Below, in pieces: positions 27,291 to 51,799 of a stretch of 64,000 nucleotides of DNA. Positions within the stretch are counted from its first letter, which is position 1, and the number at the start of each line of letters is the position of its first letter. Below the pieces are notes generated by a model. That model searched no databases. It saw nothing but the letters and a program-made list of their open reading frames with translations, and was not told the DNA's origin. A program made the translations under genes and the position numbers. Source of the stretch: Nitrosopumilus sp. (GTDB lineage Archaea; Thermoproteota; Nitrososphaeria; Nitrososphaerales; Nitrosopumilaceae); NCBI GenBank assembly GCA_965214775.1, contig OZ243974.1, positions 2,336,001 to 2,400,000 on the forward strand, in the 5' to 3' direction.

Positions 27291-27815
27291 ATGCTGAAAT
27301 CTACTTATTGTATGTCTACTCTGTTAGAAAAGCAAATCAAAGTAAATCGCATTGTTACGACAAGCACCGAGCATGCAAGGGCAATTGAAGACCCTGCCCG
27401 TGCAAAAATTGTGGAGATTCTGTATCGGCAGGCAATGTCTGCAGATCAAATCACCAAAGCGTTAAAAAAGACAGGTTACAAAAAAGCACTGACTACTGTC
27501 CGACACCACTTGGAGATCCTCAAAGAATCTGGCCTGATTGAAGTTGTCAAAATTGAAGAATCTCGCGGAGCCATAACAAAATATTACGGCACGTCTACAA
27601 AGTTACTTGACTTTGAAACTCCGAAAGATTTCGAGTCACAGTACTCAAAAGTCATAGATAACACGTCAGCCAAAATCGAAAAAATCCTCAAGGGACTTGC
27701 CCCAAAAACATCAAAAACAAAGGGAAAGAAATCCCCAGAATACTCCCAGTATCTGGTCATGGAAATCATGAACCGGGCCATGACAAACGTGTTTGAAAAT
27801 TCGGGTAAAAAATAG
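27291..27815 (+). CDS. ArsR-like winged-helix transcription regulator
   Basis: DPARAKIVEIL...TTVRHHLEILKESGLI. Confidence 0.85.
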   Translation: MLKSTYCMSTLLEKQIKVNRIVTTSTEHARAIEDPARAKIVEILYRQAMSADQITKALKKTGYKKALTTVRHHLEILKESGLIEVVKIEESRGAITKYYGTSTKLLDFETPKDFESQYSKVIDNTSAKIEKILKGLAPKTSKTKGKKSPEYSQYLVMEIMNRAMTNVFENSGKK

Positions 27816-27852: not shown

Positions 27853-28173
27853 ATGGTACGAGTGTTTTACAGCCAGAAGACAGAGGATCTCATAGAGAAG
27901 ATGACCCTGACACACTGGAGGCAGCAGGTTCAAAACGAGCTTGGCAAAGAACATCAGAGCATGTCTGATAATTGGAAAATGTGTGCAATTGGCGAGCGCA
28001 TACGCATAGAAGGAAAAGACCTAGAGTCAGTCAGGGATCTGTCTCCTGAGGCGATCCAACTGGGATATGACTTTTCAATTGCCATGCAAGAAAAAGACAA
28101 CCAAAAAGCACTGGAAATAATAGCAAAAATTGAACAACTACCTACAATTTGGCGTGATGAGGAACATGGATAA
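27853..28173 (+). CDS. hypothetical protein
   Basis: 106 aa ORF overlapping the start of the next gene. Confidence 0.7.
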   Translation: MVRVFYSQKTEDLIEKMTLTHWRQQVQNELGKEHQSMSDNWKMCAIGERIRIEGKDLESVRDLSPEAIQLGYDFSIAMQEKDNQKALEIIAKIEQLPTIWRDEEHG

Positions 28174-28570
28174 AAGAGCTGCAAAATTATTTTCTCAAAA
28201 AAACCTGGCTTTCATTGCAACTGTGATGAAAGACGGTTCCCCACAAGTATCTCCTGTTTGGGCAAATTTTGAAGGTGGTTATGTTCTGGTAAATACTGCT
28301 GAGGGGCGCATAAAACACAAAAATGTTTTACGGGATCCTCGAGTTGCAGTTTCAGTCGTTTCAAAAGATAACCCCTTGGACATGACTACAATTCGTGGTG
28401 TCGTTGAAGAATTGATTCCTGATTATGATTATCGACATGCAGACAAATTAACCAGACAATATATGGGATGCAAACATTATCCCTTCAAACGCGATGGTGA
28501 AAAAAGAGTCATTCTAAAAATAAAGCCTGACAGGGTTTTTGTTTTGCCTGATCTAAAGGTGTCAGAGTAA
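28166..28570 (+). CDS. PPOX-class (F420-dependent) oxidoreductase
   Basis: ATVMKDGSPQVSPVW, KHKNVLRDPRVAVSV. Confidence 0.9.
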   Translation: MDKRAAKLFSQKNLAFIATVMKDGSPQVSPVWANFEGGYVLVNTAEGRIKHKNVLRDPRVAVSVVSKDNPLDMTTIRGVVEELIPDYDYRHADKLTRQYMGCKHYPFKRDGEKRVILKIKPDRVFVLPDLKVSE

Positions 28571-28825
28571 GAATTTATAATATTTCTAAATTCGAATTTA
28601 GCAATACAATCAATTTAATGCTGGACTGGAAAAAAGACTCAAAGACAGTTTGACGTTTTGTTGCTGCCTTTTCCTTGCATGACGATGCTGTTGCCGTTGC
28701 TGCCTTTGGAAGTCATCGTGACTTTTTTTGTAAAAATATTCGGTGTTGTGGAAAAACAAGTCATATACTAGACTACTTCAACTATTGAAAAATTTGACAG
28801 TTCTTGTGGTTTTAAAATTTATCGG

Positions 28826-29885: not shown

Positions 29886-29976
29886 GTAAGAGTTTACCCC
29901 TCAGGCGACACTGCTGGCCGGAGCCTTGATCACCGTGCCTACCACGACGTATTTTCGGGAGGGGGTAAACTCTTAC
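29886..29976. mobile_element. 91-bp MITE
   Basis: TIR GTAAGAGTTTACCCC/GGGGTAAACTCTTAC; 9-bp TSD TTTTTTATC. Confidence 0.9.
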
Positions 29977-30025: not shown

Positions 30026-30571
30026 ATGGATGGTGCTAACATAACTGTCTCCGGACTCGTTCAGGGCGTGGGCTTTCGATACATGACAAGACGCCTGGCA
30101 AAAAAGCATGCATTAAAGGGCAAGGTCGAGAACCTAGAAGACGAAACGGTACGCATTGTCTGCGAGGGGAAAAAGACCAACATTGAGGGATTCGCTGATG
30201 CAATACGTCGCGCCCCGGAGCCAGTCGAGGTAGATGATATCCATATAGAATACGTAAAGCCCACCGGCATGTATCAAAATTTTACGATTGTGATGGGGGA
30301 TATGCTAAAGGAGATGGTGGAGGGTCACGCCACGGGGGCCGTGTATCTCGACTTTATACTCCAGAAACAGGATCAGATGCTGGGAAAACAGGATCAGATG
30401 CTGGGAAAACAGGATCAGATGCTGGGAAAACAGGATCAGATGCTGGGAAAACAGGAAGAAACCATTACAGAGATACGTACGCTGTCATCGAGCATACGTA
30501 ATACGATGGATTCGCGTTTTCAGAGGCTTGAGGACGAGATAATAAAGATAAAAACAAAACTTTCCATATGA
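30026..30571 (+). CDS. acylphosphatase with C-terminal heptad-repeat coiled coil
   Basis: GLVQGVGFR, G.VENLED.TV; KQDQMLG x4 from a 21-bp tandem repeat. Confidence 0.88.
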   Translation: MDGANITVSGLVQGVGFRYMTRRLAKKHALKGKVENLEDETVRIVCEGKKTNIEGFADAIRRAPEPVEVDDIHIEYVKPTGMYQNFTIVMGDMLKEMVEGHATGAVYLDFILQKQDQMLGKQDQMLGKQDQMLGKQDQMLGKQEETITEIRTLSSSIRNTMDSRFQRLEDEIIKIKTKLSI

Positions 30572-30845
30572 ACACATTCGTGAATCTTTTGTATGTCAAA
30601 CCAATTCGTCGCGTCTGTCAATCTTGCCTTTTCCTGTCTTCCTAAAAACGACGTGGTGAATCACCTGCTCAAATCATTGCCCAAGACTGACATCGGCATG
30701 GCTGAGCAGATCGACATAATTGGTTGTATCGCGCATGATCACCTGAAGTAGCAAACATGCCGGCGTCACGCTCTGATCCTGCCTAAAACTCACAAGGAAT
30801 GCAAGCCGGGCTCCCATGGTAGTAATGCCGTGCAAGGCATTAAAG

Positions 30846-30873
30846 TTGTTTCTAAATTCGAGTTTAGAAACAT
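30846..30873. repeat. 28-bp palindromic site, copy 1
   Basis: TTGTTTCTAAA TTCGAG TTTAGAAACAT. Confidence 0.9.
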
Positions 30874-31057
30874 GGATTTTTGACAGTGTGCTACCCAATA
30901 TGCGCCTGCAACGGAAGAATAGGAGGATTCAAGACAGAGACATGGGATACACTCTCACTGGCATCACGACTGAATACGTGGCAGGAGGCTGGCGCGTTGT
31001 AAGTTTTGTGGACTCGAAACGAAAGATTGTTATGAGTCATTTGTATAGCGCGTAACC

Positions 31058-31294
31058 ATGAAAAAAGAGCAGATGTTACCATCTCCGACATTGATTCCAC
31101 ACGCAAACGGCAGGAAAAAAATCAAAAGATGCCCGGACTGCGGCAGTGACGATCTTACGAGGATAGCCTACGGGTATATGGAAATAACCGACAAGATTGA
31201 AAGGGCCATCACACGCAAAAAAATAACGCTTGGTGGTTGTTGCGTCGAACCGTACGATTGGCAATGCAACAACTGCGGTAATTTTTTTGAGTGA
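31058..31294 (+). CDS. small Zn-finger protein (copy 1)
   Basis: CPDC...IAYGY...LGGCC...WQCNNC. Confidence 0.75.
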   Translation: MKKEQMLPSPTLIPHANGRKKIKRCPDCGSDDLTRIAYGYMEITDKIERAITRKKITLGGCCVEPYDWQCNNCGNFFE

Positions 31295-31468
31295 CGAGTA
31301 GATGCCGTTTGCGCCACTCGTGCAGTACGATTGGCAATGCAACAACTGCGGTAATTTTTTGCCGTAGTGGAAGAACATCTTGCTGAAAACCAGTCTTGAT
31401 CTGCCTAACAGTCATCATATGCTGCGCCATTACAGGGGGGAGTTGGGCACAATCTGGAATGAACACCC

Positions 31469-31900
31469 ATGTTAATTAGACCCAGGCTGCCCCGTACAAT
31501 CATGCTCACGGTGGACGATCTGATTGCCATGAACAGGAGGATAATACAGGAGTGGCTTGCAGAGCACCCAGACGGGTTTGAGGGGGTCGGCGCGAACAGA
31601 TCCCTACTTGGGGACATATTGCGTGAGACCTACCGCAAGGAGTCGCCTGTACTAATGGCCGCGCATCTGGTGGCCCATATGGCGTGGTCGCAGCCGTTCT
31701 CAGGTGCCAACAAGAGGACTGCGGTTGCAAGTGCAGCTACTTTACTTAAGACGCATGGTTATGATCTGGTCATAAAAGACAAAGACATCGAGCACATCAG
31801 AAATCTCTTGCTTGATGTTATGGGACAGCGGTCTGCCCTGAATTCAAGCGTGTATGATCAAATAATTTTATATGTATCACTACACGCAAGATCATTATGA
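31469..31900 (+). CDS. Fic/Doc-family toxin
   Basis: QPFSGANKRTA, a Fic motif variant with His replaced by Gln. Confidence 0.8.
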   Translation: MLIRPRLPRTIMLTVDDLIAMNRRIIQEWLAEHPDGFEGVGANRSLLGDILRETYRKESPVLMAAHLVAHMAWSQPFSGANKRTAVASAATLLKTHGYDLVIKDKDIEHIRNLLLDVMGQRSALNSSVYDQIILYVSLHARSL

Positions 31901-32112
31901 GCAAGCCGGATATGCTAAGGATTGCAGAAGAGTACATGAGGGACAACAAAGAACTGTTTGATGCACTGGGTGCAGAAAAACCCATCGACACTTCACGCCT
32001 TCCCAAAAACGACGTGGTGAATCACCTGCTCAAATCATTGCCCAAGACCGACATCGGCATGGCTGAGCAGATCGACATAATTGGTCGTATCGCGCATGAT
32101 CACCTGAAGTAG
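31897..32112 (+). CDS. putative antitoxin of the upstream Doc
   Basis: ATGA overlap; YMRDNKELFDALG amphipathic helix. Confidence 0.6.
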   Translation: MSKPDMLRIAEEYMRDNKELFDALGAEKPIDTSRLPKNDVVNHLLKSLPKTDIGMAEQIDIIGRIAHDHLK

Positions 32113-32207
32113 CAGGACATGCCGGCGTCACGCTCTGATCCTGCCTAAAACTCACAAGGAATGCAAGCCGGGCTCCCAAGGTAGTAATGCCGTGCAAGGC
32201 ATTGAAG

Positions 32208-32235
32208 TTGTTCCTAAAATCGAGTTTAGAAACAT
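32208..32235. repeat. 28-bp palindromic site, copy 2
   Basis: TTGTTCCTAAA ATCGAG TTTAGAAACAT. Confidence 0.85.
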
Positions 32236-32292
32236 GTTATTTGGACGCTTTCATGCTATGAATAAAATACAGGAAACGACTACGCCAACGTA

Positions 32293-33325
32293 TTGCGTTT
32301 TGGGCCGAGTCTGCGGGAGCTGTACTTTTACCTTCGAAAGTCCGTGTGTGTCACACACGGACTTGCGTCCTCGGCTAGATACTGCTATGCGACCTGGTTG
32401 CACCACCTGGTCTGCGCCGACAGGCAGGGGCTGAATAACTTCCCGGAGGCCGTGGCCGAGGTTGGGCCCGGCAGCTCGCTGGGCGTTGGACTTGCCGCGC
32501 TAATCTCTGGTTCGCATAAGTATTATAGCAACGGGCAGAAGTCTTTGAGTCAAAGTAGGTCATAACTACGCGTAAAAAACCTCAATTATTTCTGCTCGTT
32601 GCTATATGCCCTTGACGACGTACGGCATGCGACACGAGGCACCAATTTGAAGGTATTTGACGAGCTGGTACGACTGTTCAGGCAAAGGGCATCGATTCCG
32701 GACGGTGACGAGTTTCCGCGGTTGTCGGGGTGGCTTGACACACACGATTTTCCGGATCACATACTGGACAGAGATCGTATGCGTGATTCCCTGGAGCCGG
32801 AGCGCCTCAAGAGGATCAGGGATCTGGTGGCAGGCACGCCCGCCGGAGACGTGGGGGGGGAGACAGTTTGAGATCAGGTACGAAGTGCCGTGGTTCCGCT
32901 CCTGCATGTCAAGGGGCGCCGTAGACATGATCTTCTCTCAAGAGGTCATGGAGCATGTGGACCGTCTGTCTGATGCATACAAGATGATGGCAAGCCTGCT
33001 CAAGCCGGGAGGGTATGCATCCCACCGGATAAATTTTGACTCCCATGATCCTGCCTCCAAAAACTGGAATGATCACTGGACGATAGGATATGTGGCATGG
33101 AGGATGCGCTGGGTCAGGCTGATCTGGATGATAAACAGGGTGCCACTGTCCGGCCACGTGGATCTGATGAGGAGGCACGGATTCAGGATCGTATCCCTGA
33201 CCCGGCACAAGGATTCAAAGGGGTCGGTCCGGCAAAGCTTACTGCGTGGCAGGTTCCGCGGCATGTCCGAAGACGACCTGACGACTCGGAGGGCAAACAT
33301 ACTGGCAAGATTGGAAATCCTGTGA
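32293..33325 (+). pseudogene. SAM-dependent methyltransferase interrupted by a MITE and a G8 frameshift
   Basis: AEVGPGSSLG, YYALD split by the MITE, VDMIFSQEVMEHV, LLKPGG spread over three ORFs. Confidence 0.8.
32524..32606. mobile_element. IS630-derived MITE
   Basis: Same sequence as 12714-12796; TA duplication. Confidence 0.9.
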
Positions 33326-33376
33326 GTTCGTGGATCAAGACTGTCCGACTTGATGATGCGCCACGTTTGAAAACAT

Positions 33377-33404
33377 ATGTTTCTAAATTCGAGTTTAGAA
33401 ATAT
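33377..33404. repeat. 28-bp palindromic site, copy 3
   Basis: ATGTTTCTAAA TTCGAG TTTAGAAATAT. Confidence 0.9.
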
Positions 33405-33443
33405 GGATTTTTAACAGCGGGCCCGGCAACCTATGCTTTGGAC

Positions 33444-33560
33444 GTAATAGGATAGCCCCTGCCTAAAGCTGGAGTACGTCCCTTGCCGGCCAGGCATGAA
33501 AATCACAACTGCAGGCAGATTCGTGCCTGATTGCTGCCTAGGCAGGGGCTATCCTGTTAC
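33444..33560. mobile_element. 117-bp IS66-like MITE
   Basis: TIR GTAATAGGATAGCCCCTGCCTA/TAGGCAGGGGCTATCCTGTTAC; 8-bp TSD CTTTGGAC. Confidence 0.9.
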
Positions 33561-33634
33561 CTTTGGACATTGTCCTAGCTTGCCCGCAAATTATTGGTGG
33601 GGAAAACACCGCGAGACTGCTGCTGACACCTGCA

Positions 33635-33898
33635 TCATGTATCATACCGATCGTAAACTCTTGATCTTTTCTTTACTTTGAGCATGTAAAGGATCAACTT
33701 GTCATTGATCACATCCACTATTATCCTGTATTTTCCTACCCTGTATTTGAAGAAATGAGAACTTTCAAGACGTTCGAGATATGAAAACGGATCTACTTCC
33801 ACATCCCCTGTCTTCAGTAGAACCCTTTTGATGTCGTCTTTTGGAAGCTTGTCTAGTTCTTTTCGTGCCTTGTTTGACCAGATGGCAGTCCAGGTCAT
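33635..33898 (-). CDS. RelE/ParE-family toxin
   Basis: WSNKARKELDKL...KYRVGKYRIIVDV...KKRSRVY. Confidence 0.9.
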   Translation of the reverse strand: MTWTAIWSNKARKELDKLPKDDIKRVLLKTGDVEVDPFSYLERLESSHFFKYRVGKYRIIVDVINDKLILYMLKVKKRSRVYDRYDT

Positions 33899-34134
33899 AG
33901 ACCGTACTTCTTCTTGAGATCTGCATTGGTGATAAACCTGCCAGCTTTGATCTCTTTTATGGATTGTTCAATATCCTGAATGTCTTTCTCTGTAAGCAAA
34001 TCAGAATCATCCTCGTACACGTATTTCAAAATACGATTAAACATGGCCTCATATGACTCGGAGGGGTGATTTTTGAAAGAATCCCACCGCTTCTTTGATG
34101 TTTTAGAAACTTGAATTGAGGTCATTGTATCCAT
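33895..34134 (-). CDS. antitoxin of the RelE toxin
   Basis: TSIQVS N-terminal strand, ESYEAMFNRI, acidic C-terminus; overlaps the toxin start. Confidence 0.85.
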   Translation of the reverse strand: MDTMTSIQVSKTSKKRWDSFKNHPSESYEAMFNRILKYVYEDDSDLLTEKDIQDIEQSIKEIKAGRFITNADLKKKYGL

Positions 34135-34299
34135 GGTTGCCTATAGACGACTATAATATTTAATGCTTGTTTTGACGTCCAGCCAAGTGAAACGTGCCAA
34201 AAAATCGAGCAAAAGCAGGATATCCAACACTTTTCGGAATAGGCGAACCGTTTGAGTCCTCACATCTGCTGTAGGGGGACGTACCGCGTATGAAAACAT

Positions 34300-34327
34300 A
34301 TGTTTCTAAATTCGAGTTTAGAAACAT
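34300..34327. repeat. 28-bp palindromic site, copy 4
   Basis: ATGTTTCTAAA TTCGAG TTTAGAAACAT (perfect 11-bp arms). Confidence 0.9.
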
Positions 34328-34446
34328 GGATTTTTGACAGTGTGCTACCCAATATGCGCCTGCAACGGAAGAATAGGAGGATTCAAGACAGAGACATGGG
34401 ATTCACTCTCACTGGCATCACGACTGAATACGTGGCAGGAGGCTGG

Positions 34447-34537
34447 GTACGAGTTTACCCCTTGGGCGTCACTGCTGTCTGGAGTCTTCATGTTCACGCC
34501 TGCCACGCCGTATCTCAGGTGAGTGGTAAATTCCTAC
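34447..34537. mobile_element. 91-bp MITE
   Basis: 9-bp TSD GGAGGCTGG; absent from the paralogous segment near 30984. Confidence 0.92.
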
Positions 34538-34611
34538 GGAGGCTGGCGCGTTGTAAGTTTTGTGGACTCGAAACGAAAGATTGTTATGAGTCATTTGTAT
34601 AGCGCGTAACC

Positions 34612-34845
34612 ATGAAAAAAGAGCAGATGTTACCATCTCCGACATTGATTCCACACGCAAACGGCAGGAAAAAAATCAAAAGATGCCCGGATTGCGGCAG
34701 TGACGATCTTACGAGGATAGCCTACGGGTATATGGAAATAACCGACAAGATTGAAAGGGCCATCGCACGCAAAAAAATAACGCTTGGTGGTTGTTGCGTC
34801 GAACCGTACGATTGGCAATGCAACAACTGCGGTAATCGGTGGTGA
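34612..34845 (+). CDS. small Zn-finger protein (copy 2)
   Basis: Nearly identical to 31058-31294. Confidence 0.75.
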   Translation: MKKEQMLPSPTLIPHANGRKKIKRCPDCGSDDLTRIAYGYMEITDKIERAIARKKITLGGCCVEPYDWQCNNCGNRW

Positions 34846-35000: not shown

Positions 35001-35591
35001 TCACATCGGAATTTACAAATGCAAAAACTACAGCTATGTTCAAACGTTAGACGGGTTTACAATCCCTCCTCATATTTCCGAAATATCACAAGAGACTTTA
35101 CAATAATACCCTGTGCATGCAGTTGAAAATGGAATATTTTTTTGGCGAAATAGGCACGATGTGTCAAAATCATATCCCATTTTTTGATGTTGGTACTATG
35201 GCCGCCCAGACTAGAGTCATTCATGCCTTCCTGATAGGGCATCCTACCTTCAAAAAAACCCCCCCTTTTGGGGCCAAACACGGCTTGATCCTAGTCCATA
35301 TTTGTGCCTGTTTTCACCGATCCGATCTGGAAACAGGGGGGTTTAGCTCTCAGGCACAAAAATAAAACACCGCCAACACTTTGCCCAGCTACCGGGGTGT
35401 TTTGACGGTTGCCTGCCGTATCTACGAGCAGGTGCTAAACCCCCCCTGAAATCGGCGTTTTTTGAGAAAACGGCTCTGTGCCTGGGACGCGTGTCCGGGG
35501 AGGGGGGTTTAGCTCTCAGGCGTGGGATAAGGATCCGCATTTTTGCGGGTATTTTGCATCCTGCAAAGATCGGCACGCTATCCTGGTAACA

Positions 35592-36292
35592 GTATGAGGT
35601 CACCTATTCCCCCACATTAGGTCAAATATTGATGACGATGCCGATCCTTATACCATGATCGCGTATACTAGACATTATGAAAGGTCAACCCTCCACATAC
35701 TGTGAGATCGAGGCATCTATAGCATCGTCGACGGAGAAGATACAGAGTCTGGAAAAGGGAATCAAGGAACGTGACAACATCATCAAGGAACGTGACAACA
35801 TCATCAAGGAACGTGACACGACCATTGAGAAACTAAACAATATAATCAAGGATCAGGGCAGCAGGCTCCGATACTATGAGAACGAGAACTCGCCCCCGTC
35901 GGCAGACTCGCTTGCGTGGAAGGAGCAAAAGGCACAGAGGAAAAAGGAGAGGGCCCAATACGATGCTGTAGCCGGGAATGGCGGCACCAGGAATAACAGG
36001 AAAAAGCCCGGCGGCCAAAAGGGCCACAAGGGCGTATCGCGCGTCCACCGGCCCACCCGGGTACAAAGGCACTACTTTCCGGGCGGACAGGCGCCAGAGT
36101 GCTGGTGCGGCACCCCCACGAAGATCATGAACAGGTCGCAGACACGCGACATGATTGGATTTGAGATCAAGGCGGTTGAGACGCGCCACGAGATACAGAG
36201 GTATGCGGTCACGCCCCCTGCTGGCTAGGCATGAAAATCATAGACATGCATGCCAACTCGTGCCTGATTGGCAGGGGTGGGTGACCTCATGC
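35592..36292 (+). mobile_element. internally deleted IS66-family element
   Basis: Ends GTATGAGGTCACC/GGTGACCTCATGC; ORF 35677-36228 has a coiled coil, NSPPSADS, KKPGGQKGHKG and CWCG, but no DDE core. Confidence 0.8.
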
Positions 36293-36345
36293 CAAGCTAC
36301 TTTGATCACAATGTTAAAATTTCATATTGGCGCAACATTGGCAAT

Positions 36346-37204
36346 TGACAAGAATCATCAGCAGATCAATCTCAAAGGCGGAGTGGGAAAAACCCAGACT
36401 GTAGTGGCCATTGCCGAATTTCTTGCCATGCAGCACAAGAAGAAAGTACTTGTAATTGATCTAGATCCGCAAACCAATGCTACCATGGCCTTGATCACGC
36501 AAGATGTTTGGAAGGACAAGAACGAGAAAGGCGAGACTATTTTTCAAATGTTCAAGGACAGGCTAGACAACACGTCAAAATTCAATATTAAAAACTCGAT
36601 AATGCAAAAAGTATCCAATGTGAATGACGGCATACCGAACTTGGATCTCTTGCCATCAAGTCTGGATCTGGTAGGAATACAGGATGAATTATCACAAATT
36701 ACTACGGGTCGCTTTCATCTGTTCAGCCCAGTTATGATTCTTAAAAGATCCATCTCGCCGGTGTTGCAGGATTACGATTATGTACTCATTGACTGTCCAC
36801 CAAACCTTGGAATAATAACGCTAAACGGCCTGTACATATCAGATTTTTATGTCATTCCCACCATTCCAGACATCCTTCCAACGTTTGGCATCCCACAAAT
36901 AATTAGTAGGATATCGGATTTTTCAAGAGAGGGCGATTTGACAATCAATCCCTCAGGAATAATAATCTCAATGTATAGAAAGCAAAGTACCACACACAAA
37001 ACCATGATGGAGTCCCTGAAAAACAGAGCACAAAGCGGCGAATACCCCCCGGTTTATGATACGGTGATTCCTTTGACCGTAAGAACCGCAGATGCGGCGG
37101 ATGTCAGTTCCGTATCGGCTACACTAAAACAAAAGTACGGCTATGTGACAATGTTTGACGTATATGACAAGCTTACAAACGAGTTTCTGGAGAGGATCCG
37201 ATGA
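36346..37204 (+). CDS. ParA/Soj-family ATPase (5' end uncertain, possibly frameshifted)
   Basis: NLKGGVGKT, VLVIDLDPQTNAT, YDYVLIDCPPNLG. Confidence 0.85.
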
Positions 37205-40099: not shown

Positions 40100-40909
40100 T
40101 CAGAGATGCGGTCCAATCTTGCCTAAAATTTCCTTTGCTGCAACATCCCACCCCACTCGAAGACCCTTTGGAACATACGGGTTTGTCGAGCCGTGCAGGC
40201 CCTTCATTTTTTGCCCATCCAGAAATTTTTCCGTCATCCTTGCTCTAAAATCATCATATTTTATGTCAGCGGAGATTAGAACATCTTTCAAGATTTCGAT
40301 TATCGTACCTATTTCGCTCGTAATTTTGAGGCCAGAGTAGATGTCATAGACGTCTTTGCCCTCGTCTCTCTCGTAAAATGCCTTTAATTTTTTGGCAATC
40401 AGAGTGTGAAGTGAATAGACTGGAACCTTACCTACTGTCAGCGGAAGTATCGTGCTGCTTGCACTGATTACTTGGTCACTTCCAGTCATTGCTTCTCCCA
40501 TGTTGAATTCAAGAAACACGCTATCATCCATATTGATTTCGTTTTTGAATTTGCATGTAAAATGAATAATGTTTTTTCGCCGTGCCTCTTTTGGAATTGT
40601 GTAAGAGCTGCTCAATGGGGCAATAACGTTGTTTTTGATAAATTCTATTTTTTCATCTTTTGATCTGTCATCCTTGAAAAATATGTCCAGATCAATATCC
40701 TCTGAGAACCTCTGTATGTGGCCAAGATATACTTTGTTCAACGAGGTACCGCCTTTGCATACCATTTTGGCCTCAGACAAGACTGCATCAGACAACATGA
40801 CGGGACACGTCTTACTCCAGATGTCAAACACCCTTGCCTCCTTTAGGACATATTGCATCCTAATCCTAGTTCTTGCAGCTGCCTGCTGTGCCTCCCGCAG
40901 TTCAACCAT
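40100..40909 (-). CDS. AbiEii-type nucleotidyltransferase toxin (type IV TA)
   Basis: KGGTSL, RFSEDIDL, KLKAFYER...KDVYDI. Confidence 0.92.
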   Translation of the reverse strand: MVELREAQQAAARTRIRMQYVLKEARVFDIWSKTCPVMLSDAVLSEAKMVCKGGTSLNKVYLGHIQRFSEDIDLDIFFKDDRSKDEKIEFIKNNVIAPLSSSYTIPKEARRKNIIHFTCKFKNEINMDDSVFLEFNMGEAMTGSDQVISASSTILPLTVGKVPVYSLHTLIAKKLKAFYERDEGKDVYDIYSGLKITSEIGTIIEILKDVLISADIKYDDFRARMTEKFLDGQKMKGLHGSTNPYVPKGLRVGWDVAAKEILGKIGPHL

Positions 40910-41723
40910 CGTACCACCACGAGAGAAGTTTTCTCTCCCCTATGTTGTCTGTCACCATCCATTCTTTGATGTACCTTCCGCCCTTCATGGCATAGTCAAG
41001 CTTTGCCTTGTTTTTTATCCTGCCCTCCAAATATTCCACAAAGTCTGCAGGGATGTCATATCCCGTCTCTTTGTGAAGCAGTGAAAGCATATAGCCAATC
41101 TTCTGGCACAGGCTAGACGATCCAAAACGGTCAAGATGTCCCTCCATTTCAACCCAGTCCATTCCCTCTGCCAGGTGCAGGGATTTTAAAACCTCAGAAT
41201 AGCCGCCTGCGTGACGCGGATGGCAGAAGCAGTCAAAGAACGTCTTTGCCTTTGTTGAGACCACGTACTTTCCCTTTTTCTCAAACCCGGCGAACCTCCT
41301 TCCCAGGTTTACGGCCCTTACCTCATAGTGCTCAAGCAACGGGGTCGTCTCCGACTTGTTTTTGGTCGCAACAAAAACTGTAAATGGCTCGTATTCGCTT
41401 AGCCCGTGTATTCTCAGTGCGCTTTGGAAGGCAAGGTACCCCGAGTACATCTTCAGGCTGACCTCGAAGGGATCCTCAAGGTATGCACGCCCCTCAAACG
41501 CGGTGCTGGCAGGAAGTCTCAGATATACACCCTTTCCCACTCCTGTTATCCAGCCCTTCTTTTCCAGCCTGCAGATTAGCACGTAGAGATAATCCCTGCT
41601 CAGCCCCAGTTCCTTGTCATCTATTTCAGATACCTTAAAGGAGTTCTTTCCCATGCTTTCCAGATACAAATAGAACTTTTGCTCTTCATGGCTGAGTGGC
41701 ATTGTGGAGAGATTTAAATCCAT
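40902..41723 (-). CDS. AbiEi-type antitoxin / transcriptional regulator
   Basis: RLEKKGWI..VGKGVY, YLAFQSALRIHGL, KTFFDC; overlaps abiEii. Confidence 0.9.
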   Translation of the reverse strand: MDLNLSTMPLSHEEQKFYLYLESMGKNSFKVSEIDDKELGLSRDYLYVLICRLEKKGWITGVGKGVYLRLPASTAFEGRAYLEDPFEVSLKMYSGYLAFQSALRIHGLSEYEPFTVFVATKNKSETTPLLEHYEVRAVNLGRRFAGFEKKGKYVVSTKAKTFFDCFCHPRHAGGYSEVLKSLHLAEGMDWVEMEGHLDRFGSSSLCQKIGYMLSLLHKETGYDIPADFVEYLEGRIKNKAKLDYAMKGGRYIKEWMVTDNIGERKLLSWWYDG

Positions 41724-42105
41724 AATCTAACCATGGCAGTTAGATTTTAAATTCTTTTCTCACCAACTGCCACAGAGTTTATTCGAAATTAGCAGATTCT
41801 GATTATTTGTGGATGAATTTGCATAAAACGGCTCAAAACACCAGCAAAATACAAACTATCTGCGAAATCACTTGGAAAATTCGCACGACTTCTAATTTCG
41901 GATCATCTATCCTGTGGCCAAACATGAAAATCACAACTGCAGGCAACTCCTGCCTAATTGACAGAGTACAACATCATGTCCTCAACTTTCTAGGCGTAAA
42001 ACATTCATCCAATTCCTGTTCACACCTGATTTTACGGAGGACATGATGTTGTACCAACAAACTATTGAATCCCAATCCTTTTTTTATGACGGAATAAAAC
42101 AAGAC

Positions 42106-42243
42106 ATGTCTGATACAAAACAGATGGAATCCCCTCCGTTATCTGATGAAGAAATCAGGGACATTAAAGAATTTTATGCACATCCTGAAGATCGAAAAAT
42201 CGTGACATTTGACGAACTGCTTGAAGAGCTGCACAGTGATTAG
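42106..42243 (+). CDS. short acidic putative antitoxin
   Basis: LSDEEIRDIKE...VTFDELLEEL directly upstream of a toxin remnant. Confidence 0.6.
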   Translation: MSDTKQMESPPLSDEEIRDIKEFYAHPEDRKIVTFDELLEELHSD

Positions 42244-42246
42244 AAA

Positions 42247-42508
42247 TTGTGGGATTTGGACAGAAACAAAAAATTCATCAGACAGTACAAGAGACTTGAT
42301 TGTACAATATGACATCTTGCAGACAATGCAATATACGACATCATAACGTCGGCAAACCCTGCTGATCTTGGAGTGTACAAACAAGACATGAGAACTTTTT
42401 CTTATGAACTTGGCAGAAAGCACCGAATCATTTTCAGTACGATATAACGGCAGCGTCGTGGAGTTGCTTTGAGTGTGCGACCACAAGTCAGTCTACGGCA
42501 AGAACTGA
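42247..42508 (+). pseudogene. RelE/ParE-like toxin pseudogene
   Basis: KKFIRQYKRL...SYELGRKHRIIF...CDHKSVY with in-frame stops and a frameshift. Confidence 0.65.
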
Positions 42509-42659
42509 TGGTACAAACAACCAAATTCTTCCCTGACTGAAACTGCTTTACAACTTTTGTACCGTGACCTTGACTCGGATCCAGGATGTGCAAAATAATC
42601 CAAAATTCAAAAAGTGTGCGAAAAAAAGCGTTCCTATTCTAGCGGGGTCCTCACCAACA

Positions 42660-42910
42660 GTACGTGGCATTTGCAACCAACCTCCCGTTCTCCAACACGC
42701 TGCACGAGATCGATACTGCCCCACCGGACTACCGGAAGAGGTGGGGAATAGAGACAGGATGCAGACAGATAGAGCAGATACGGGCCAAGACCATAAGCAG
42801 GAACCAGGACATCAGGCTACTTGCATTCTTTGTGTCTGTCTTTGTGTACGCCATGTGGGCCGTCGAGCGCAACAGGGACGACATATGGTGTGGTGGAAGG
42901 GACTACATTT
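42660..42910 (+). pseudogene. ISH3/IS4-like transposase C-terminal remnant
   Basis: AFATNL...YRKRWGIETG...RAKT.SRNQDIRL. Confidence 0.75.
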
Positions 42911-43247
42911 TACAAACTTGACTAGAATTACTTCTCCATCCTATACGACGACATATGGTGTGGTGGAAGGGACTTTACATTATTGCGGGTTTCATACGCG
43001 ATTCTTATGGCTGCTAGAAGGAATCTTGCAGAATACGGGTTTGCCGGCCCACCACTGCTGCCGCAGGGTCGAGGTGGCCTTTGGGGGGGGTTACATTTCC
43101 GTCTACTGTTGATCGGTACATCCTAAAGTAATCCTTTGCAACCCTCTTCAAATTAGTTGCGACCTAATTTTCGTACAATCGAAGTCTGCCGTTGAAGAAC
43201 AAAAGATAAAATTCTGTAGAACCAAGATCAGTTGGGGTTATAACATC

Positions 43248-43739
43248 TTGATTTGTGTAGAAATCATGTCATCAGACAGTGAAATTGTAATGGAAATCGA
43301 TGAAAGTTTTCTGATTGAAACAAATGAAAAAGTCCTCTTGAGAGAAAAAGAAAGAACCGGCAAAGTGGTCTATATCGAGACTGTTCCTCAAAATCTTGCC
43401 CGGGTATTGCCCAAAGTGAGCGAGTATGGCAATTCAGGAAACATAACAGAAGACCTGATTCAAAAGGCATCTGCCATAATGGCGGCGATTCCTTGGCTTC
43501 AGGCGTTCTTTGATGGCAATAGAAGAACTTCGATTGTTGCTGCAGGAACGTTTCTGCGTGATAATGGCTATGAACTGTGTATCAGCTCAGAAGAGGAAAA
43601 CACAGAACTGAGAAAGATGTTGAGTGAGATCAAGAAACACAGGCGTGGTCTTGAGCCGGCTATTATGCAGAAGTTGTCTTTATATATCTCAGAAAGGATG
43701 AACAAATATGAGTCCAAAACACGAAAAGATCACGGATGA
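43248..43739 (+). CDS. Fic/Doc-family toxin
   Basis: KASAIM...QAFFDGNRRTS...FLRDNGY. Confidence 0.8.
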   Translation: MICVEIMSSDSEIVMEIDESFLIETNEKVLLREKERTGKVVYIETVPQNLARVLPKVSEYGNSGNITEDLIQKASAIMAAIPWLQAFFDGNRRTSIVAAGTFLRDNGYELCISSEEENTELRKMLSEIKKHRRGLEPAIMQKLSLYISERMNKYESKTRKDHG

Positions 43740-43791
43740 ACTCATCGAAAAGTATTCTAAAATCTTGGATGACCTTGCTACTGACGACTAG
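43708..43791 (+). CDS. 27-aa putative micro-antitoxin
   Basis: MSPKHEKITDELIEKYSKILDDLATDD; overlaps the doc 3' end. Confidence 0.5.
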   Translation: MSPKHEKITDELIEKYSKILDDLATDD

Positions 43792-44320
43792 TTTCTAAAA
43801 CTGCACATTCTCATTTCCGCACTGAAAGGTAGCAGGCAGGACTGGATGTTCAGTTCTGAATCTTGTTATTGCTGAATACCGATCAAGTGGAAGCAAGAGT
43901 TTACCCCTTACCTATTTGGTGAATTCTTTCTGACCACCCGATCTATAATCTTATCGGTAGATTTCTGGAAAAATTCTAGACAACGCCCATCTAAGTGAAA
44001 GGTACTAAAAAATCGAGTAAAAACACAAGATGTACAGGAGACACGCTACCTGAATATCAGGACAAAACAACAAACTTCACTTACTTTTCGCTTAGCTGCT
44101 GTTGGGGGTTGCCCATATTTGGGTCAGGCTGGCACCGCATCCATGTTACGCCTTCTGCAATCGTTTGATCCTCCCGTCCAGTACAGTCATCATGGTTCTG
44201 ATTTTTCATGTGGTGTTGTCCGATCTTGTCACGCAGGCAAGCAGATTCCGGCGATCCAATCACCGGAATTTGGTAAAAACCCCGGATCCATTTTATATAA
44301 TTACAGTTCGTATGAGGCAT

Positions 44321-44530
44321 ATGAGTAAAAAGGACGATTATAGCGTTCTAGTAGAGAAGGACGGGAAATTCTTTGTTGGTTACTGTTTGGAGATTCCGCA
44401 AGCTAGGGGCCAAGGAGACACAAAGCAGGAGGCAGTGACAGATACAAAAAAAGCAATCAGGCTGTGCAGATCATATCTTGAAGATAAAAAGAAGGATCTG
44501 GCATCAAAGTTAGTTACCGTGTCGCTTTGA
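44321..44530 (+). CDS. hicB: HicB-family antitoxin
   Basis: YSVLVEKDG..FVGYCLEIP...QGDTKQEAV...KKAI. Confidence 0.88.
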   Translation: MSKKDDYSVLVEKDGKFFVGYCLEIPQARGQGDTKQEAVTDTKKAIRLCRSYLEDKKKDLASKLVTVSL

Positions 44531-44741
44531 GCCTTCCTGTTGTCGGGTATTTGGAGATGCTCAAGGCATTGCGAAAAAGAGATTTTTTCCCGGTCAGGCA
44601 AACCGGAAGCCATATCATAGTTGAGGATGGCGGGGACTATGGGCTTCGATTCCCAGAAAAAAAGAGCTGGGCAGAGGACTGACATTGTCAATAATTTCTG
44701 ATTGCGGATTGACAAAAAAGGAGTTTCTTGCGTTGTTGTAG
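44527..44741 (+). pseudogene. hicA: HicA toxin, frameshifted
   Basis: LKALRKRDFFPVRQTGSHII, then in another frame IPRKKELGRGL..SII.DCGLTKKEF. Confidence 0.8.
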
Positions 44742-44765
44742 CGTAGAGCAAAAGTTCCTGAAGAT

Positions 44766-45870
44766 TATAGCAACGAGTATAAGTCTTTGAGCCAAAACAA
44801 GGTCATTCGAAAAGTATAATGATCACGTAACTGGCGCAGTATGTATGGCAAAAGAAACAGACATCCTGTCAGAGGCCATGCGCAAAGAAAAGGATGCCAA
44901 AGTCTACAAAAAGATCATGGCGTTGATGTTTGTGTCAGAGGACGACATAGGCGTGCCCGAGGCTGCAAGGAGTCGGTGCAGTGAGAATTCCGTGCGCAAC
45001 TGGCTGGCGAGGTTTTCGGAGGGCGGCATAGACGGTCTCCGGGATCTTCCACGCTCCGGACGCAGGCCAAGGGTGGACAGAAAAAAGATTGCCGCCATAA
45101 TGGATCTGTCCATTGAATACAACAGTACCGATGTCATGACGGTACGCGATGACATAAGGAATGCCACCGGGATAGAATACAGCATAGAGCATGTCCGAAG
45201 ACTGATGTGCCAGCACGGCCTGTCGCGCCGCAAGGTGCAAAACATACATGTCAACCATGCCGCCCCAAATCCGGCATACCCATGGCAGCGATACCTTGAA
45301 AACGTGCGGTTCCGCGCCTGAAAAAAGACGGTTTTACGCTGGTGTCATCTGATGAGGCATTCTTCGTGCAGGGCTCATACGACAGATGCGCATGGGATCC
45401 GGTCGGCACCAGAGGTGTGGCCTCGTATTCGGGGAACCGCACAAAGGTGGCCGTGTTTGGAAGCATCGCAGAAGACGGCAGGAGGCTGTTCGGGACGTTT
45501 ACGGGATCGCTTGCGTCGGTGCAGTTCATGGAATGTCCGGGGCGCTGCGCGCCAAGTCTGGCAGGGTTGCAGTCTTTTGCGACAGGTGGAGCGTGCACAG
45601 ATCTGCTGCCGTCGCAGAATATCTGGCGGGCCATCCCGACGTCAGGCTGATAATGCTCCCAAAGGGATCGCCGTACCTCAATGTCGTGGAAGAATGCTGG
45701 AACCTGGGCAAGCCTATCGTTTTCAGTGGGATAGTGTACAGAAAGATCAGCGAATTGCGGCATGCTATATCCGAATATTACAGGACGGCGTCGCTTGCCC
45801 GCCTTTGCATGTACAGGTACATTTACAGATCGCCGGTCAAGGCCCTCAATTACTTGTGACCGTTGCTATA
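44766..45870 (+). mobile_element. IS630-family element (transposase frameshifted)
   Basis: TA-TAGCAAC...GTTGCTA-TA ends; HTH GLRDLPRSGRRP, SSDEAFF, LPKGSPYLNVVEECW. Confidence 0.9.
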
Positions 45871-45918
45871 ACACAATGAGATCATCGATTTTTATTTTCT
45901 CTACATCAGACATGCTGT

Positions 45919-46036
45919 GTAACAGGATAGCCCCTGCCTAGGTAGCAATCAGGCACGAATCTGCCTGCAGCTGTGATTTTCATGCCTGATCTGCAAGGGA
46001 CGTAATTCCAACTCTAGGCAGGGGCTATCCTGTTAC
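45919..46036. mobile_element. IS66-like MITE
   Basis: TIR GTAACAGGATAGCCCCTGCCTAG; near-perfect 8-bp TSD CATGCTGT/CATGCTGC. Confidence 0.88.
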
Positions 46037-46249
46037 CATGCTGCCTACTCACCAATTCCTTGTCTTTCGTAGCAACGCCTGTCGTAATAGGTTTTGTTGT
46101 TGATCCAGAGAGTTAATTCGAAATTAGCAAACTCTGATCATTTGTGAACGAATTTGCATGAGACAGCTCAAAATATCAACAAAATACAAGCTATCTGTGA
46201 ATTCGCGTGAAAAATTCGCATGGTTTCTAATTTCGGATCACCTCTCTGC

Positions 46250-46361
46250 AAGGGTGATCTGGCACATGCTGACCGACGAGACGGAATACAGCACGCAGGA
46301 CAAGGAGCTCACGCAGAGAAAGCGTAAGGCGATGGAATGCCTGGCAGATGCGTCTGACTGA
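46250..46361 (+). pseudogene. IS110 transposase C-terminal remnant
   Basis: VIWHMLTDETEY...RK. Confidence 0.55.
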
Positions 46362-46409
46362 GAAACGCACACTCGCAGCGGCCCGTGCAGGGAACCGGAA
46401 TAATTTGAT

Positions 46410-46500
46410 ATGGGAGTTTACCCCCTAGGCGACACTGCTGGCCGGAGCCTTCATGATCACGCCTGCCACGCCGTATCTTGGGGGAGGGGCAAACTCTTAC
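46410..46500. mobile_element. 91-bp MITE
   Basis: Homologous to 29886-29976. Confidence 0.8.
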
Positions 46501-46570
46501 CTAATTTCCATATGAAACATTCATAGACCCGATCTGTTACAATTAAATACTAATTTTATGTGTGGCAAGT

Positions 46571-46672
46571 ATGGTAAAAGGTGAGAAGATTCATCAAGAA
46601 AAATTAAGAGAAATCGCCATTAGAACCATAGACAAGAACAAGGCAGTATTTGAAAGACTGGCTGAAATTTAA
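46571..46672 (+). CDS. 33-aa putative micro-antitoxin
   Basis: MVKGEKIHQEKLREIAIRTIDKNKAVFERLAEI; TAATG overlap with doc. Confidence 0.6.
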   Translation: MVKGEKIHQEKLREIAIRTIDKNKAVFERLAEI

Positions 46673-47298
46673 TGAAACAGTTATCCCAAGAAGACTTGTT
46701 ACAACTTCACACTATTGTTGAAGAGCATTTTAATGTATTTCGAGGTGTGAAAGATAAAGGGTTACTTTCATCTATTGCAGATAGACCAACTCAACAAATC
46801 GGTTCGTTGATGCCATATGACAATATCTTCAAGCAAGCAGCTAGTCTAATGGAAGGAATTATTAGAATGCATCCGTTCTATGATGGAAATAAAAGAACCG
46901 GCTTACTTGCAGCTATATGTTACTTGGAAATTAATGGATTTTCTACAATAATCCCTTTGGATTCTGTTAGATTTACTGTTTTAATTGCAAAGAACCAAGA
47001 TAACGATTCCGAATCAAATAAGGAATTAATTAACGAAATCTCAAAATGGCTTAGAAGACATTCATCCAAATCAAATAGCAGAATGTTAAATTTTAAAGAA
47101 TTATGGTATGTTAAACTTCCAGTAGCTGGACTATTGTATCTAGCACAATATGGTCGAATGACTAAATATGTTCATTCCATAATTTCTGAATGGTTGGCAT
47201 TTGATATTTATCCCGAATATGCAAAAGAGGTAAAAGAAATCGTGGAGTTTATTCAAGAATTACTAGAAAAGAAAAGTGTTTGGGATTTAAAGAAATAA
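46672..47298 (+). CDS. doc: death-on-curing (Doc/Fic) toxin
   Basis: HPFYDGNKRTG; GVKDKGLLSSIADRP. Confidence 0.92.
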   Translation: MKQLSQEDLLQLHTIVEEHFNVFRGVKDKGLLSSIADRPTQQIGSLMPYDNIFKQAASLMEGIIRMHPFYDGNKRTGLLAAICYLEINGFSTIIPLDSVRFTVLIAKNQDNDSESNKELINEISKWLRRHSSKSNSRMLNFKELWYVKLPVAGLLYLAQYGRMTKYVHSIISEWLAFDIYPEYAKEVKEIVEFIQELLEKKSVWDLKK

Positions 47299-47713
47299 AA
47301 TGATGTGAAACTAATTTCTAGCAGATTTAGATATCTGTCATAACCCATCAAACACTAATGAATCATGTATCTTTGTGACAGTTCGTGTTTGTGAAGTGAT
47401 TTGTGATTCTAGGCATGATTTACATCCAAGACATCCTGTATTTTGGAATCAAAACCACGCCTGAGCTTCAGAATCACGAGCTGTTATGATTGAGGAATAC
47501 GGGCACCAGTCAAAGAGGGACATGCTTGGTCTCCGAGTACTATTCCGCGCTTGAGGCGATGAGGCGCGCGCTGTCAGAATATCTGAGAACGTCCAGCACT
47601 CAGCTTGATGTCAGAAGGTTCATCCGAAGGGGATCGATTTTATTCACGAACTTGTGATCGGCAGTATGCAAATTACTGCAAATTCGTGCCTAGTTGCTTA
47701 AGATGAGGTGACC

Positions 47714-47843
47714 GGGGTTGTTTCCTAATTCCACTTGCCTGATTCAATCTGTATGTTTTTCTGAATTTTCGCCCTTTTGCACGCCTGATCCATGTGGTAT
47801 CTCAACGGTTTTCAGGAATTCTGACGAATTAGGAAACAACCTC
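47714..47843. mobile_element. 130-bp IS5-like MITE
   Basis: TIR GGGGTTGTTTCCTAATT; 9-bp TSD GAGGTGACC. Confidence 0.9.
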
Positions 47844-48010
47844 GAGGTGACCTCTGCCCTCTCTTTGTCTGTGGGGGACAGGGGCAAGATTGCTACTTTC
47901 GTTTACGCATAAAATCTAGTAATGACTTCTTACCGCTTGCCATATTGAAGACATCAAAAATAAAAAAATTAGGAAAGGGGTTTTGAAAGCACCCCGGTAG
48001 CTTCCTGTCG

Positions 48011-48382
48011 TTATCGGTGTATGCGGCGCCGCCGTGGTGCCGCATATTTGCCTATGTTCGTATGTGCTATGATCTTGCCATTGATGATGTTTTTCTTGTA
48101 TTTGAGGGCGTGACACAGACCGTATGCGACCAGGAATTCAAACGGCTCGCCGTGTACTCTTACATAGTACATGTTGTACGTCATCATGTGATACCCATAG
48201 CAGAGGTATGGCCCAAACGTAATCGTACACTCCGTCGTCCTGCTCTTGGTTTCCTCACCGGTGCGAAAGAGAACGTTGTCTGGCTGCGAAAGGTCGCCTG
48301 GCATCCTAGCATCGGGGAGTGTCCCCCTATCTGTGACATTGATGTCACATCCGTCCAAAAACTCTTGGAATTCTTCATTCAT
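48011..48382 (-). pseudogene. truncated paralog of 52938-53441
   Basis: Clear similarity over about 110 aa, then diverges. Confidence 0.7.
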
Positions 48383-48500
48383 ACCGCAAATCTGGCACTT
48401 TTATTTATTATCTGTTTTTTTAAAGATGCCGATGGTTATAATATATGAAGAGTAGGTCCACTAGTCATCTATGTCCTTCTACATTTTAGGTCTTTTTTCC

Positions 48501-48750: not shown

Positions 48751-48758
48751 ATTTAAAG

Positions 48759-51770: not shown

Positions 51771-51799
51771 GTTTTGCAAGCCGGCAGAAACGGTCTTGG

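Follow-up and report, generated by a model that had tools for sequence, protein, structure and literature searches.

A conserved 28-bp palindrome opposite the replication origin of Nitrosopumilaceae borders accessory gene modules in a Nitrosopumilus genome

We analysed a 64,000-nucleotide stretch of a Nitrosopumilus sp. genome (the window; assembly GCA_965214775.1, contig OZ243974.1, positions 2,336,001–2,400,000), in which a 28-bp palindrome recurs at the junctions of a short array of accessory gene modules; coordinates below are those of the window unless given in Mb or stated to be genomic. An earlier inspection, the sequence-only reading, had proposed four such palindromes. All four are present on the plus strand without a mismatch to the pattern, at 30846–30873 (site 1, TTGTTTCTAAATTCGAGTTTAGAAACAT), 32208–32235 (site 2, TTGTTCCTAAAATCGAGTTTAGAAACAT, the most diverged copy), 33377–33404 (site 3, ATGTTTCTAAATTCGAGTTTAGAAATAT) and 34300–34327 (site 4, ATGTTTCTAAATTCGAGTTTAGAAACAT), against no matches in 100 shuffled sequences. 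The asymmetric centre TCGAG points the same way in each, as had also been claimed, and the spacings between successive sites are 1362, 1169 and 923 bp. A fifth copy that the earlier list lacked, the ancestral site D (ATATTTCTAAATTCGAATTTAGCAATAC, 28580–28607, no strand assigned, centre TTCGAA), lies between convergent gene ends, 9 nt past the stop codon of the PNPOx-like gene (28130–28570, plus strand) that serves as its syntenic anchor. The inverted arms have an 11-6-11 architecture in all five window copies and in the copies from the rest of the family, with the consensus AT[G/A]TTTCTAAA-YTCGAR-TTTAGAAA[C/T]AT. Scanning the whole genome (2,833,656 bp in a single contig) with up to four mismatches in the 22-nt core gave five places, none outside a 5.8-kb stretch; this is clustering, not dispersal, and the scatter at promoters expected of a common operator was not seen.

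From left to right the array consists of a truncated end of module 1, site 1, module 1, site 2, module 2, site 3, module 3, site 4 and a truncated start of module 1. Module 1 (30874–32207, plus strand) encodes a Zn-ribbon protein (31058–31294), a Fic/Doc toxin (31469–31900) and a 71-residue putative antitoxin (31897–32112). Module 2 (32236–33376, plus strand) holds a frame-broken class I S-adenosylmethionine (SAM) methyltransferase gene (32657–33325), and module 3 (33405–34299, minus strand) a ParE/RelE toxin gene (33635–33898, minus strand) with a gene for a 79-residue putative antitoxin (33895–34134); the methylase and relE genes converge on site 3 with their 3′ ends. Much of the cargo proposed earlier stands, the Fic/Doc, methyltransferase and ParE/RelE assignments scoring above their family cut-offs, but the Zn-ribbon match in module 1 is weak and falls below its own; neither antitoxin has a family match, and both are assigned from position only. 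The G+C fractions of modules 1, 2 and 3 are 0.487, 0.543 and 0.437, respectively, against 0.40–0.435 in the DNA to the left. Three miniature inverted-repeat transposable elements (MITEs) lie within the array, in module 2 (32524–32606), in module 3 (33444–33560) and in the truncated start of module 1 (34447–34537), with a fourth just outside (35113–35190); blastn finds about 42–91 copies of each of these four in the genome. A MITE-like sequence at 29886–29976 is 74% identical to that at 34447–34537 and looks like a member of the same family.

The array contains duplications that switch at the palindrome, as the sequence-only reading had held, and they end no more than 1 nt from the edges of the 28-mer. 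To the left, the truncated copy of the module 1 end (30631–30845, plus strand; the last part of the 71-residue gene and about 95 nt of non-coding DNA) is 96.2% identical to 31999–32207, the whole match pairing 30638–30874 with 31999–32236 at 96.2% over 238 bp; sites 1 and 2 are the same on the left through the last base of the 28-mer and different after it. To the right, the truncated second copy of the module 1 start (34328–34836, plus strand, with its Zn-ribbon gene at 34612–34845) is interrupted by the 91-bp MITE and matches in two blocks, 30847–30992 with 34301–34446 (146 bp) and 30984–31282 with 34538–34836 (299 bp), each at 99.3%; sites 1 and 4 differ through base 1 of the 28-mer and are identical from base 2 onward. 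Both duplication boundaries are thus found at the edges of site 1. After site 4 the truncated copy continues into an Mrr-like nuclease fragment. The short shared flanks reported earlier are also there, TGAAAACAT to the left of sites 3 and 4 and GGATTTTT.ACAG to the right of sites 1, 3 and 4, and the arm variants track the adjoining module (outer left TTG versus ATG, outer right CAT versus TAT). The three MITEs inside the array are younger than its duplications. In four of 17 public runs, all compared as contigs, the contigs match each module base for base and one crosses site 2, spanning 32149–32550 without a difference; the contigs stop at repeats, and the joints listed stem from MITEs or from the collapsed palindrome word. 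A metagenome scan for an array-type site together with its right flank gave no matches.

The palindrome is ancient and occurs well beyond the array. Rather than an attachment site peculiar to the cassettes, it is a fixed chromosomal element of the whole family, found at a syntenic locus and usually in four copies in the genus. In a pilot within the genus, 23 of 24 sampled genomes carried 2–6 copies inside a few kb, and in a pilot across the order only 2 of 16 other families gave any match. The genus census found the site in 138 of 151 genomes (96 of the 98 of high quality), usually four times, with no matches to a backwards control. Across the family, with at most two mismatches, 246 of 251 genomes that are at least 90% complete carry 1–6 copies each, and all 24 genera are represented; this count includes seven unpublished genomes, without which it is 239 of 244. 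In a 201-genome sample of the phylum, at up to three mismatches, the site occurred in 30/30 genomes of the family and in 5/170 of other families, there as single matches with 2–3 mismatches, compared with 16/170 for the backwards control. At this threshold and in this sample, the site is confined to one family. A literature search found no published description of the palindrome, and the main text of PMC6563490 has the string 'palindrom' once, in its reference list, and no tRNA-Asn.

Copies are clustered in every locus that we read, mostly at one syntenic locus running from the PNPOx-like gene to tRNA-Asn and a ribosomal operon. The usual order, in the orientation of the window, begins with SAICAR synthase, an ArsR-type regulator, the PNPOx-like gene and site D. 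The interval up to site C holds, all on the minus strand, genes for a K/A-rich protein, a DUF4352 protein, variable products and a DUF2299 protein. Site C is followed by a 75-residue membrane protein and an 82-residue Zn-ribbon protein, then by site B and, after about 70 bp, by site A, which lies 2–8 nt from the 3′ end of tRNA-Asn with the ribosomal protein operon next. Of the 24 loci read in relatives, 20 have a site adjacent to the PNPOx-like 3′ end, and in most relatives read an intact site immediately precedes the DUF2299 gene. Site B stands about 91 nt ahead of the Zn-ribbon gene and site C about 65 nt ahead of the DUF2299 gene; sites D and A and array site 3 adjoin gene 3′ ends and hold no fixed upstream position. 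The six copies in one genome (G210; labels of this kind are our own), three on each of two contigs, probably represent one locus that was binned in two versions, rather than an array.

Comparison of the copies shows that the site is under strong constraint. Its A+T-rich sequence is retained in genomes of 33–62% G+C, and variation is found mainly at position 3 (G/A) and at the outer bases of the centre (YTCGAR), most family copies having the palindromic centre TTCGAA. Symmetric double changes between the arms number 20 against 19.6 expected, which indicates that the arms vary independently, and no Rfam family matched at the sites. A hairpin or RNA element was rejected for want of an Rfam family and of any excess of compensatory arm changes; we therefore read the palindrome as a putative duplex site for a dimeric protein.

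In the genome studied here this locus has been heavily rebuilt, the distance from the PNPOx-like gene to ribosomal protein L6 being about 70 kb compared with about 5 kb in a relative. Ancestral sites A and B are lost, the 82-residue Zn-ribbon gene has no site within 5 kb, and site C (55771–55798, no strand assigned), which precedes the DUF2299 gene (55264–55722, minus strand) by about 50 nt, has decayed to 16 of 22 core bases, six having changed. The array thus contributes four further, pristine copies, 2.2–5.7 kb to the right of site D. The inserted DNA encodes AbiEii, two more Fic/Doc proteins, a helicase with an MrfA Zn domain, a nuclease and ParA, and carries several insertion sequence (IS) elements; the same locus accumulates such elements, together with defence-like genes, in those members of the genus that have larger genomes. 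Between the array and the ancestral DUF2299 gene we observed a defence-type island (40100–55089) with the AbiEii toxin and its partner, two Fic/Doc genes, an 883-residue DEAD helicase bearing the MrfA Zn domain, an SNase-like protein, an archaeal ATPase and IS fragments. The window also has two runs of 21-bp in-frame tandem repeats, one of four KQDQMLG units (30365–30448) that extends an acylphosphatase gene (30026–30571) and one of IKERDNI units (35761–35823) within the open reading frame 35677–36228.

DNA gained with its borders at the site is found in three genomes, of which this is one; the other two, G150 and G164, have rearrangements that end at the site, which supports that part of the sequence-only reading. 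G150 (L097:5232–5748) has a 495-bp unit between two sites, with one orphan gene for a 103-residue protein; its two sites share about 30 nt of flank on the left and 13 nt on the right (about 75 bp shared in total). In G164 (L098:14531–14694) a 71-bp unit of site plus spacer stands in tandem and yields three sites. A further genome, G148, has an extra site within the D–C interval. In the present genome and in G150, the extra copies bound accessory modules.

The same 28-mer is carried by small virus-like circles. An exact scan of a viral collection returned 47 contigs, all of 4.08–4.75 kb and with one copy each, of which 6 have terminal overlaps that imply circles of 4.08–4.26 kb. One gene map is common to 41/47 contigs, with the site between two divergent genes; it is 30–31 nt from one ATG in 41/47 and, in the five maps that were read, 16–31 nt from the start of the second gene. 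Where the centre is asymmetric, its polarity relative to the gene for a 140-residue protein is consistent, one contig excepted. Coincidence falls far short of explaining an exact 28-mer common to a single host family and a single lineage of circles. Among the 11 open reading frames of one circle, none reached a Pfam cut-off, one had a weak PHROG match of unknown function and no recognisable integrase or Rep was found; the circles showed no protein homology to the host locus or to the host genome as a whole. The rolling-circle initiators Rep-Arvir were considered and set aside, the circles having no open reading frame of that size and the relevant part of PMC13107129 making no mention of the lineage. 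We also observed that the circle family (viral contigs L040–L086, metagenome contigs L108–L187) has about 4.1–4.7 kb, a conserved map and some 12 small open reading frames, among them those for the Gly-rich 140-residue protein, a K/R-rich 70-residue protein, several CxxC proteins and a 250-residue protein starting MGFSGGGSN. Three circles that were read and have no site (L128, L171 and L160) show a shorter divergent gap with another palindrome, built on TTCTAAGAA. Two further palindromes, of ATAAGAAATAATTATTTGTTAT type and TTTAGAACATTCTAAA type, recur elsewhere in site-less and related circles, the TTCTAAGAA and TTTAGAACATTCTAAA types having the half-site TTCTAA/TTAGAA in common.

We next placed the cluster on the chromosome, where it lies opposite the replication origin. 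In 14 of 14 genomes from seven genera it is 40.7–48.3% of the replicon away from orc1/cdc6; these genomes are not independent trials because they share synteny. In the source genome the cluster occupies 2.3646–2.3703 Mb. Plain cumulative GC skew was noisy and uninformative, and oligomer skews were used instead; the origin position rests on orc1 adjacency, origin recognition box (ORB) repeats and these skews. Upstream of orc1 (genomic 1053280–1053670) a stretch of 82% A+T is enclosed by a 21-nt inverted repeat pair and accompanied by two ORB-like boxes, and the strand skews of 9 of 11 oligomer words have a sharp minimum at this origin, at 1.048–1.056 Mb. The other turning point is broad, falling at 2.372–2.390 Mb for five words and at 2.494–2.550 Mb for six, and the combined curve rises steadily to about 2.38 Mb and is flat to 2.51 Mb, which places the cluster just before the rise ends. 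The palindrome itself was considered as an ORB or origin element and rejected because canonical ORB-like repeats adjoin orc1, at 1.0533–1.0537 Mb, 1.31 Mb from the palindrome. A single origin has been mapped in N. maritimus, as given in the relevant section of a review (PMC4010727).

Two proteins encoded at the ancestral locus are candidate readers of the site on the strength of their distribution. The 82-residue Zn-ribbon protein occurs in 85/86 family genomes and in 0/34 others, and is 79–99% identical across 18 genera, barring two divergent second copies and one divergent genome. It falls below Pfam and NCBIfam cut-offs, its best PDB match is to RNA polymerase Zn ribbons at E = 0.027, and the Atlas holds it only in unnamed clusters. 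We observed, besides, that it is more conserved than the neighbouring L6 in the loci compared and more than S8 in most of them, and that its leader region has conserved inverted repeats and GGAGG ahead of a TTG start. In G018 and G201, as in this genome, the 5 kb to either side of the Zn-ribbon gene hold no site. The ArsR-type winged-helix regulator (27291–27815, plus strand, in the window), which stands beside the site cluster across genera, is also present in 85/86 family genomes, with relatives of only 29–40% identity in 5/34 others. In five genomes whose Zn-ribbon gene has moved away from the cluster (G201, G190, G172, G177 and the present one), the regulator gene is still no more than about 5 kb from the sites; in G018 the distance is about 14 kb.

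The reading that we favour, tentatively and at a little under even confidence, is that the palindrome is a terminus site read by a host factor, and that modules bearing the site were joined here by crossover inside it, in the manner of dif and of integrative mobile elements exploiting Xer (IMEX). The 28-bp palindrome would be a double-stranded recognition site for a putative family-specific factor, kept as a small cluster near the end of replication. Small replicons may carry one copy each, as the circles of about 4.2 kb do and as the toxin–antitoxin and methylase modules here would once have done. Several such modules would then have been joined head to tail by crossovers in the site, through Campbell-type insertion and at least one unequal exchange, leaving one site per junction in a single orientation throughout; later the outer copies of module 1 would have been cut and MITEs inserted into the array. 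We take the exchange to be site-specific and performed by a host function encoded elsewhere, which would follow the logic of dif with its IMEX elements, or of plasmid cer sites, with no canonical Xer enzyme. From these patterns we infer protein binding, circular intermediates and an enzyme. Modules 1–3 and the G150 unit carry no integrase, each lies between direct copies of the site, and their cargo is typical of mobile elements. Because unrelated modules each owned a copy and the circles carry the site as well, small replicons appear to gain from carrying it.

The analogy with dif and IMEX may be drawn because of the terminus position and the 11-6-11 anatomy. Like Xer/dif, IMEX and plasmid cer/psi sites, the palindrome has 28 bp and inverted arms of 11-6-11, and like dif it lies opposite the origin at the skew turning point; as with IMEX and cer, the same site is found on small circular replicons without an integrase, and inserted modules are flanked by direct copies. 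The archaeal system for comparison is XerA/dif of Thermococcales and Sulfolobales. Unlike Xer/dif, with one site per chromosome, there are typically four copies here (five in this genome), most with a palindromic centre, and there is no universal Xer-type enzyme; a point of likeness is that two copies at one locus in S. solfataricus are described in the pertinent part of Cortez 2010 (PMC2958812). Unlike IMEX, the circles were found without an integrated copy, and recombination at the site is something that we infer.

Several observations weigh against this reading. A tyrosine recombinase would find no polarity in the palindromic centre TTCGAA that most family copies have. In most genomes both the copies and the intervening genes are fixed, and an active, directly repeated resolution site should delete those genes, so that their stability counts against it. 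On the circles, the site occupies the interval that separates two divergent start codons, a placement like that of an operator or promoter, and it is present in only 15/36 near-complete circle relatives. Integrated copies of the circles were not found, a protein search giving 0/151 and a DNA search only marginal matches of 28–55 nt, and the best 80 of 268 metagenomic relatives of the circles were all on contigs of at most 6,014 bp. The sequence-only reading had proposed a dedicated shuffling system; modules bounded exactly by the 28-mer, their differing G+C and the arm variants that travel with them uphold its descriptive part, but general recombination between 28-bp repeats leaves identical junctions, and a dedicated system is therefore not established. 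Sequence alone cannot separate site-specific from homology-driven exchange.

The search for an enzyme bears on the same question. No PF00589 match lies in or near the window, in agreement with the earlier statement that no recombinase is encoded at the array; the three matches in the genome are at 0.53, 1.40 and 2.80 Mb, the nearest more than 400 kb from the window. XerA acting in trans had been suggested as the partner. PF00589 (E ≤ 0.001, a threshold that a very divergent enzyme would escape) is missing from 12 of the 89 genus genomes that are at least 95% complete, including the single-contig G010, G046, G064 and G133, and all 12 hold 2–4 sites; XerA in trans therefore cannot be the general partner. 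The relevant part of Cortez 2010 (PMC2958812) describes Thaumarchaea as without xerA. Serine recombinases (PF00239) were found in none of five genomes. The best tyrosine recombinase of this genome, a 313-residue integrase, was rejected as a general partner, for its close orthologues are limited to four other genomes, G150 among them, and its own gene is part of a methylase/helicase island with a lower G+C. We observed that this island (genomic 528000–542000, 41.8% G+C) also encodes an adenine methylase-like protein with an NPPY motif, a 508-residue protein and two proteins of more than 1000 residues; it is possibly a phase-variable restriction or BREX-like system.

A more far-reaching form of the favoured reading, which we consider possible but doubtful, is that a family devoid of XerA marks its terminus with the palindrome cluster and reads it by machinery of a new kind, either a non-canonical recombinase or a Zn-ribbon or ArsR-type binder that recruits one. 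This machinery would resolve or organise sister chromosomes and would be exploited by the circular viruses of about 4.2 kb, a new family without a recognisable Rep or integrase, and by free-standing cassettes of toxin–antitoxin and methylase genes that accumulate at the site.

The most resilient of the rival explanations, unlikely but to be taken seriously, is that the palindrome is an operator through which a local family-specific DNA-binding protein, the ArsR-type regulator or the 82-residue Zn-ribbon protein, controls transcription. The viruses would have borrowed the site to link their divergent promoters with the host factor, and the array would have arisen by ordinary duplication and short-homology recombination. 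Consistent with this, the site on the circles lies between divergent start codons and 30–31 nt from one of them in 41/47, the TTTAGAAA arms could act as TATA boxes, host sites B and C precede the Zn-ribbon and DUF2299 genes by about 91 and 65 nt, both proteins match the family range of the site (85/86 each, and for the Zn-ribbon protein 0/34 elsewhere), and independent variation of the arms fits a dimer on duplex DNA. However, site D lies between convergent 3′ ends, site A at the 3′ end of tRNA-Asn and array site 3 between 3′ ends; the centre YTCGAR is conserved as well as the arms, which is unusual for operators; and the Zn-ribbon gene stands without a nearby site in the three genomes named above. 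An operator would also leave unexplained why unrelated cargoes of differing G+C each have a copy, and why the cluster is opposite oriC.

We regard as less likely again an organiser of the terminus. A protein encoded at the locus would bind the cluster and make of it either a fork barrier in the manner of Tus–Ter and RTP–Ter, in which the protein gene adjoins a Ter site, or a centromere-like anchor. The same machinery would be open to small replicons that carry a copy, and stalled forks or bound protein would create a recombination hot spot of which the array and the rearrangements in G164 and G150 are by-products. Ter sites, whether of Tus–Ter in E. coli and plasmid R6K or of RTP–Ter in B. subtilis, are polar and spread widely in two opposed groups. 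The palindromes resemble them as several putative protein sites at the terminus, with a close pair beside a small-protein gene and copies on small replicons, but unlike Ter sites they are symmetric and lie within a few kb, and their binding is presumed. This explanation needs no recombinase and accords with the distance from orc1 (41–48% in 14/14 genomes), with the end of the skew rise just past the cluster, with several copies in a few kb, of which a pair about 70 bp apart adjoins the small, highly conserved Zn-ribbon gene, and with the IS elements and defence genes that gather at the locus in larger genomes. Symmetric sites, however, would stop forks from either side, and an organiser does not alone explain why modules of differing cargo each have a copy. 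The locus has no conserved segregation ATPase; the ParA gene (36155–37204) belongs to the island of this genome only. To our knowledge, archaea have no known fork barrier or centromere that works in this way.

An array of integron or pdif type, served by an integron integrase or a XerC/D-type pair, is highly improbable, and is already largely refuted by the missing integrase and the anatomy of the site. The pdif modules of Acinetobacter plasmids are small, often encode toxin–antitoxin pairs and have 28-bp Xer-type sites at which homology breaks; their sites alternate in orientation, are plasmid-borne and depend on XerC/XerD. Archaeal integrons were reportedly described in 2022. The modules here are likewise small and bounded by the site, often with toxin–antitoxin cargo and with homology breaking at the palindrome, and, like integron cassettes, they stand head to tail in units of about 0.5–1.4 kb (495–1362 bp), some of a single gene, with one site per junction. 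Yet no integrase gene lies in or near the window, nor is there an intI, attI or Pc; the sites are short, 28-bp, near-perfect to perfect palindromes conserved in sequence, not structured attC sites with imperfect hairpins of 57–141 bp. Unlike pdif modules, which alternate, these have a single orientation and a chromosomal setting, and unlike integron cassettes they adjoin fixed ancestral copies, the same sites being fixed chromosomal features in 24/24 genera.

A selfish repeat (a collapsed MITE or IS end) or duplications born of misassembly can hardly be credited: the genome is rich in MITEs with three inside the array, the end of a local IS that the sequence-only reading had likened to the arm (GTTGTTTCCTAATTC) does match at 13/15 bases but at site 1 only, which we read as chance, and public-run contigs break at sites 1, 3 and 4, where the assembly supplies the linkage, but the palindrome has just five copies within 5.8 kb compared with 42–91 for true MITEs, no target-site duplications flank it, the 28-mer is conserved across the family, and the run contigs agree with each module and span site 2.

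Ammonia-oxidising archaea are among the most abundant microbes of the ocean, and the 28-mer, present in 24 genera, placed opposite the origin and copied in viruses, offers a concrete handle on the end of replication and the separation of sisters in these organisms. It is directly usable as bait for the protein that reads it, and the array in the window is a natural test of exchange at the site. Should the palindrome be only an operator, it would still be a family-wide regulatory element, to which a new group of very small archaeal viruses is tied. If the reading that invokes novel machinery is true, the family would possess an archaeal counterpart of dif and IMEX built from different parts.

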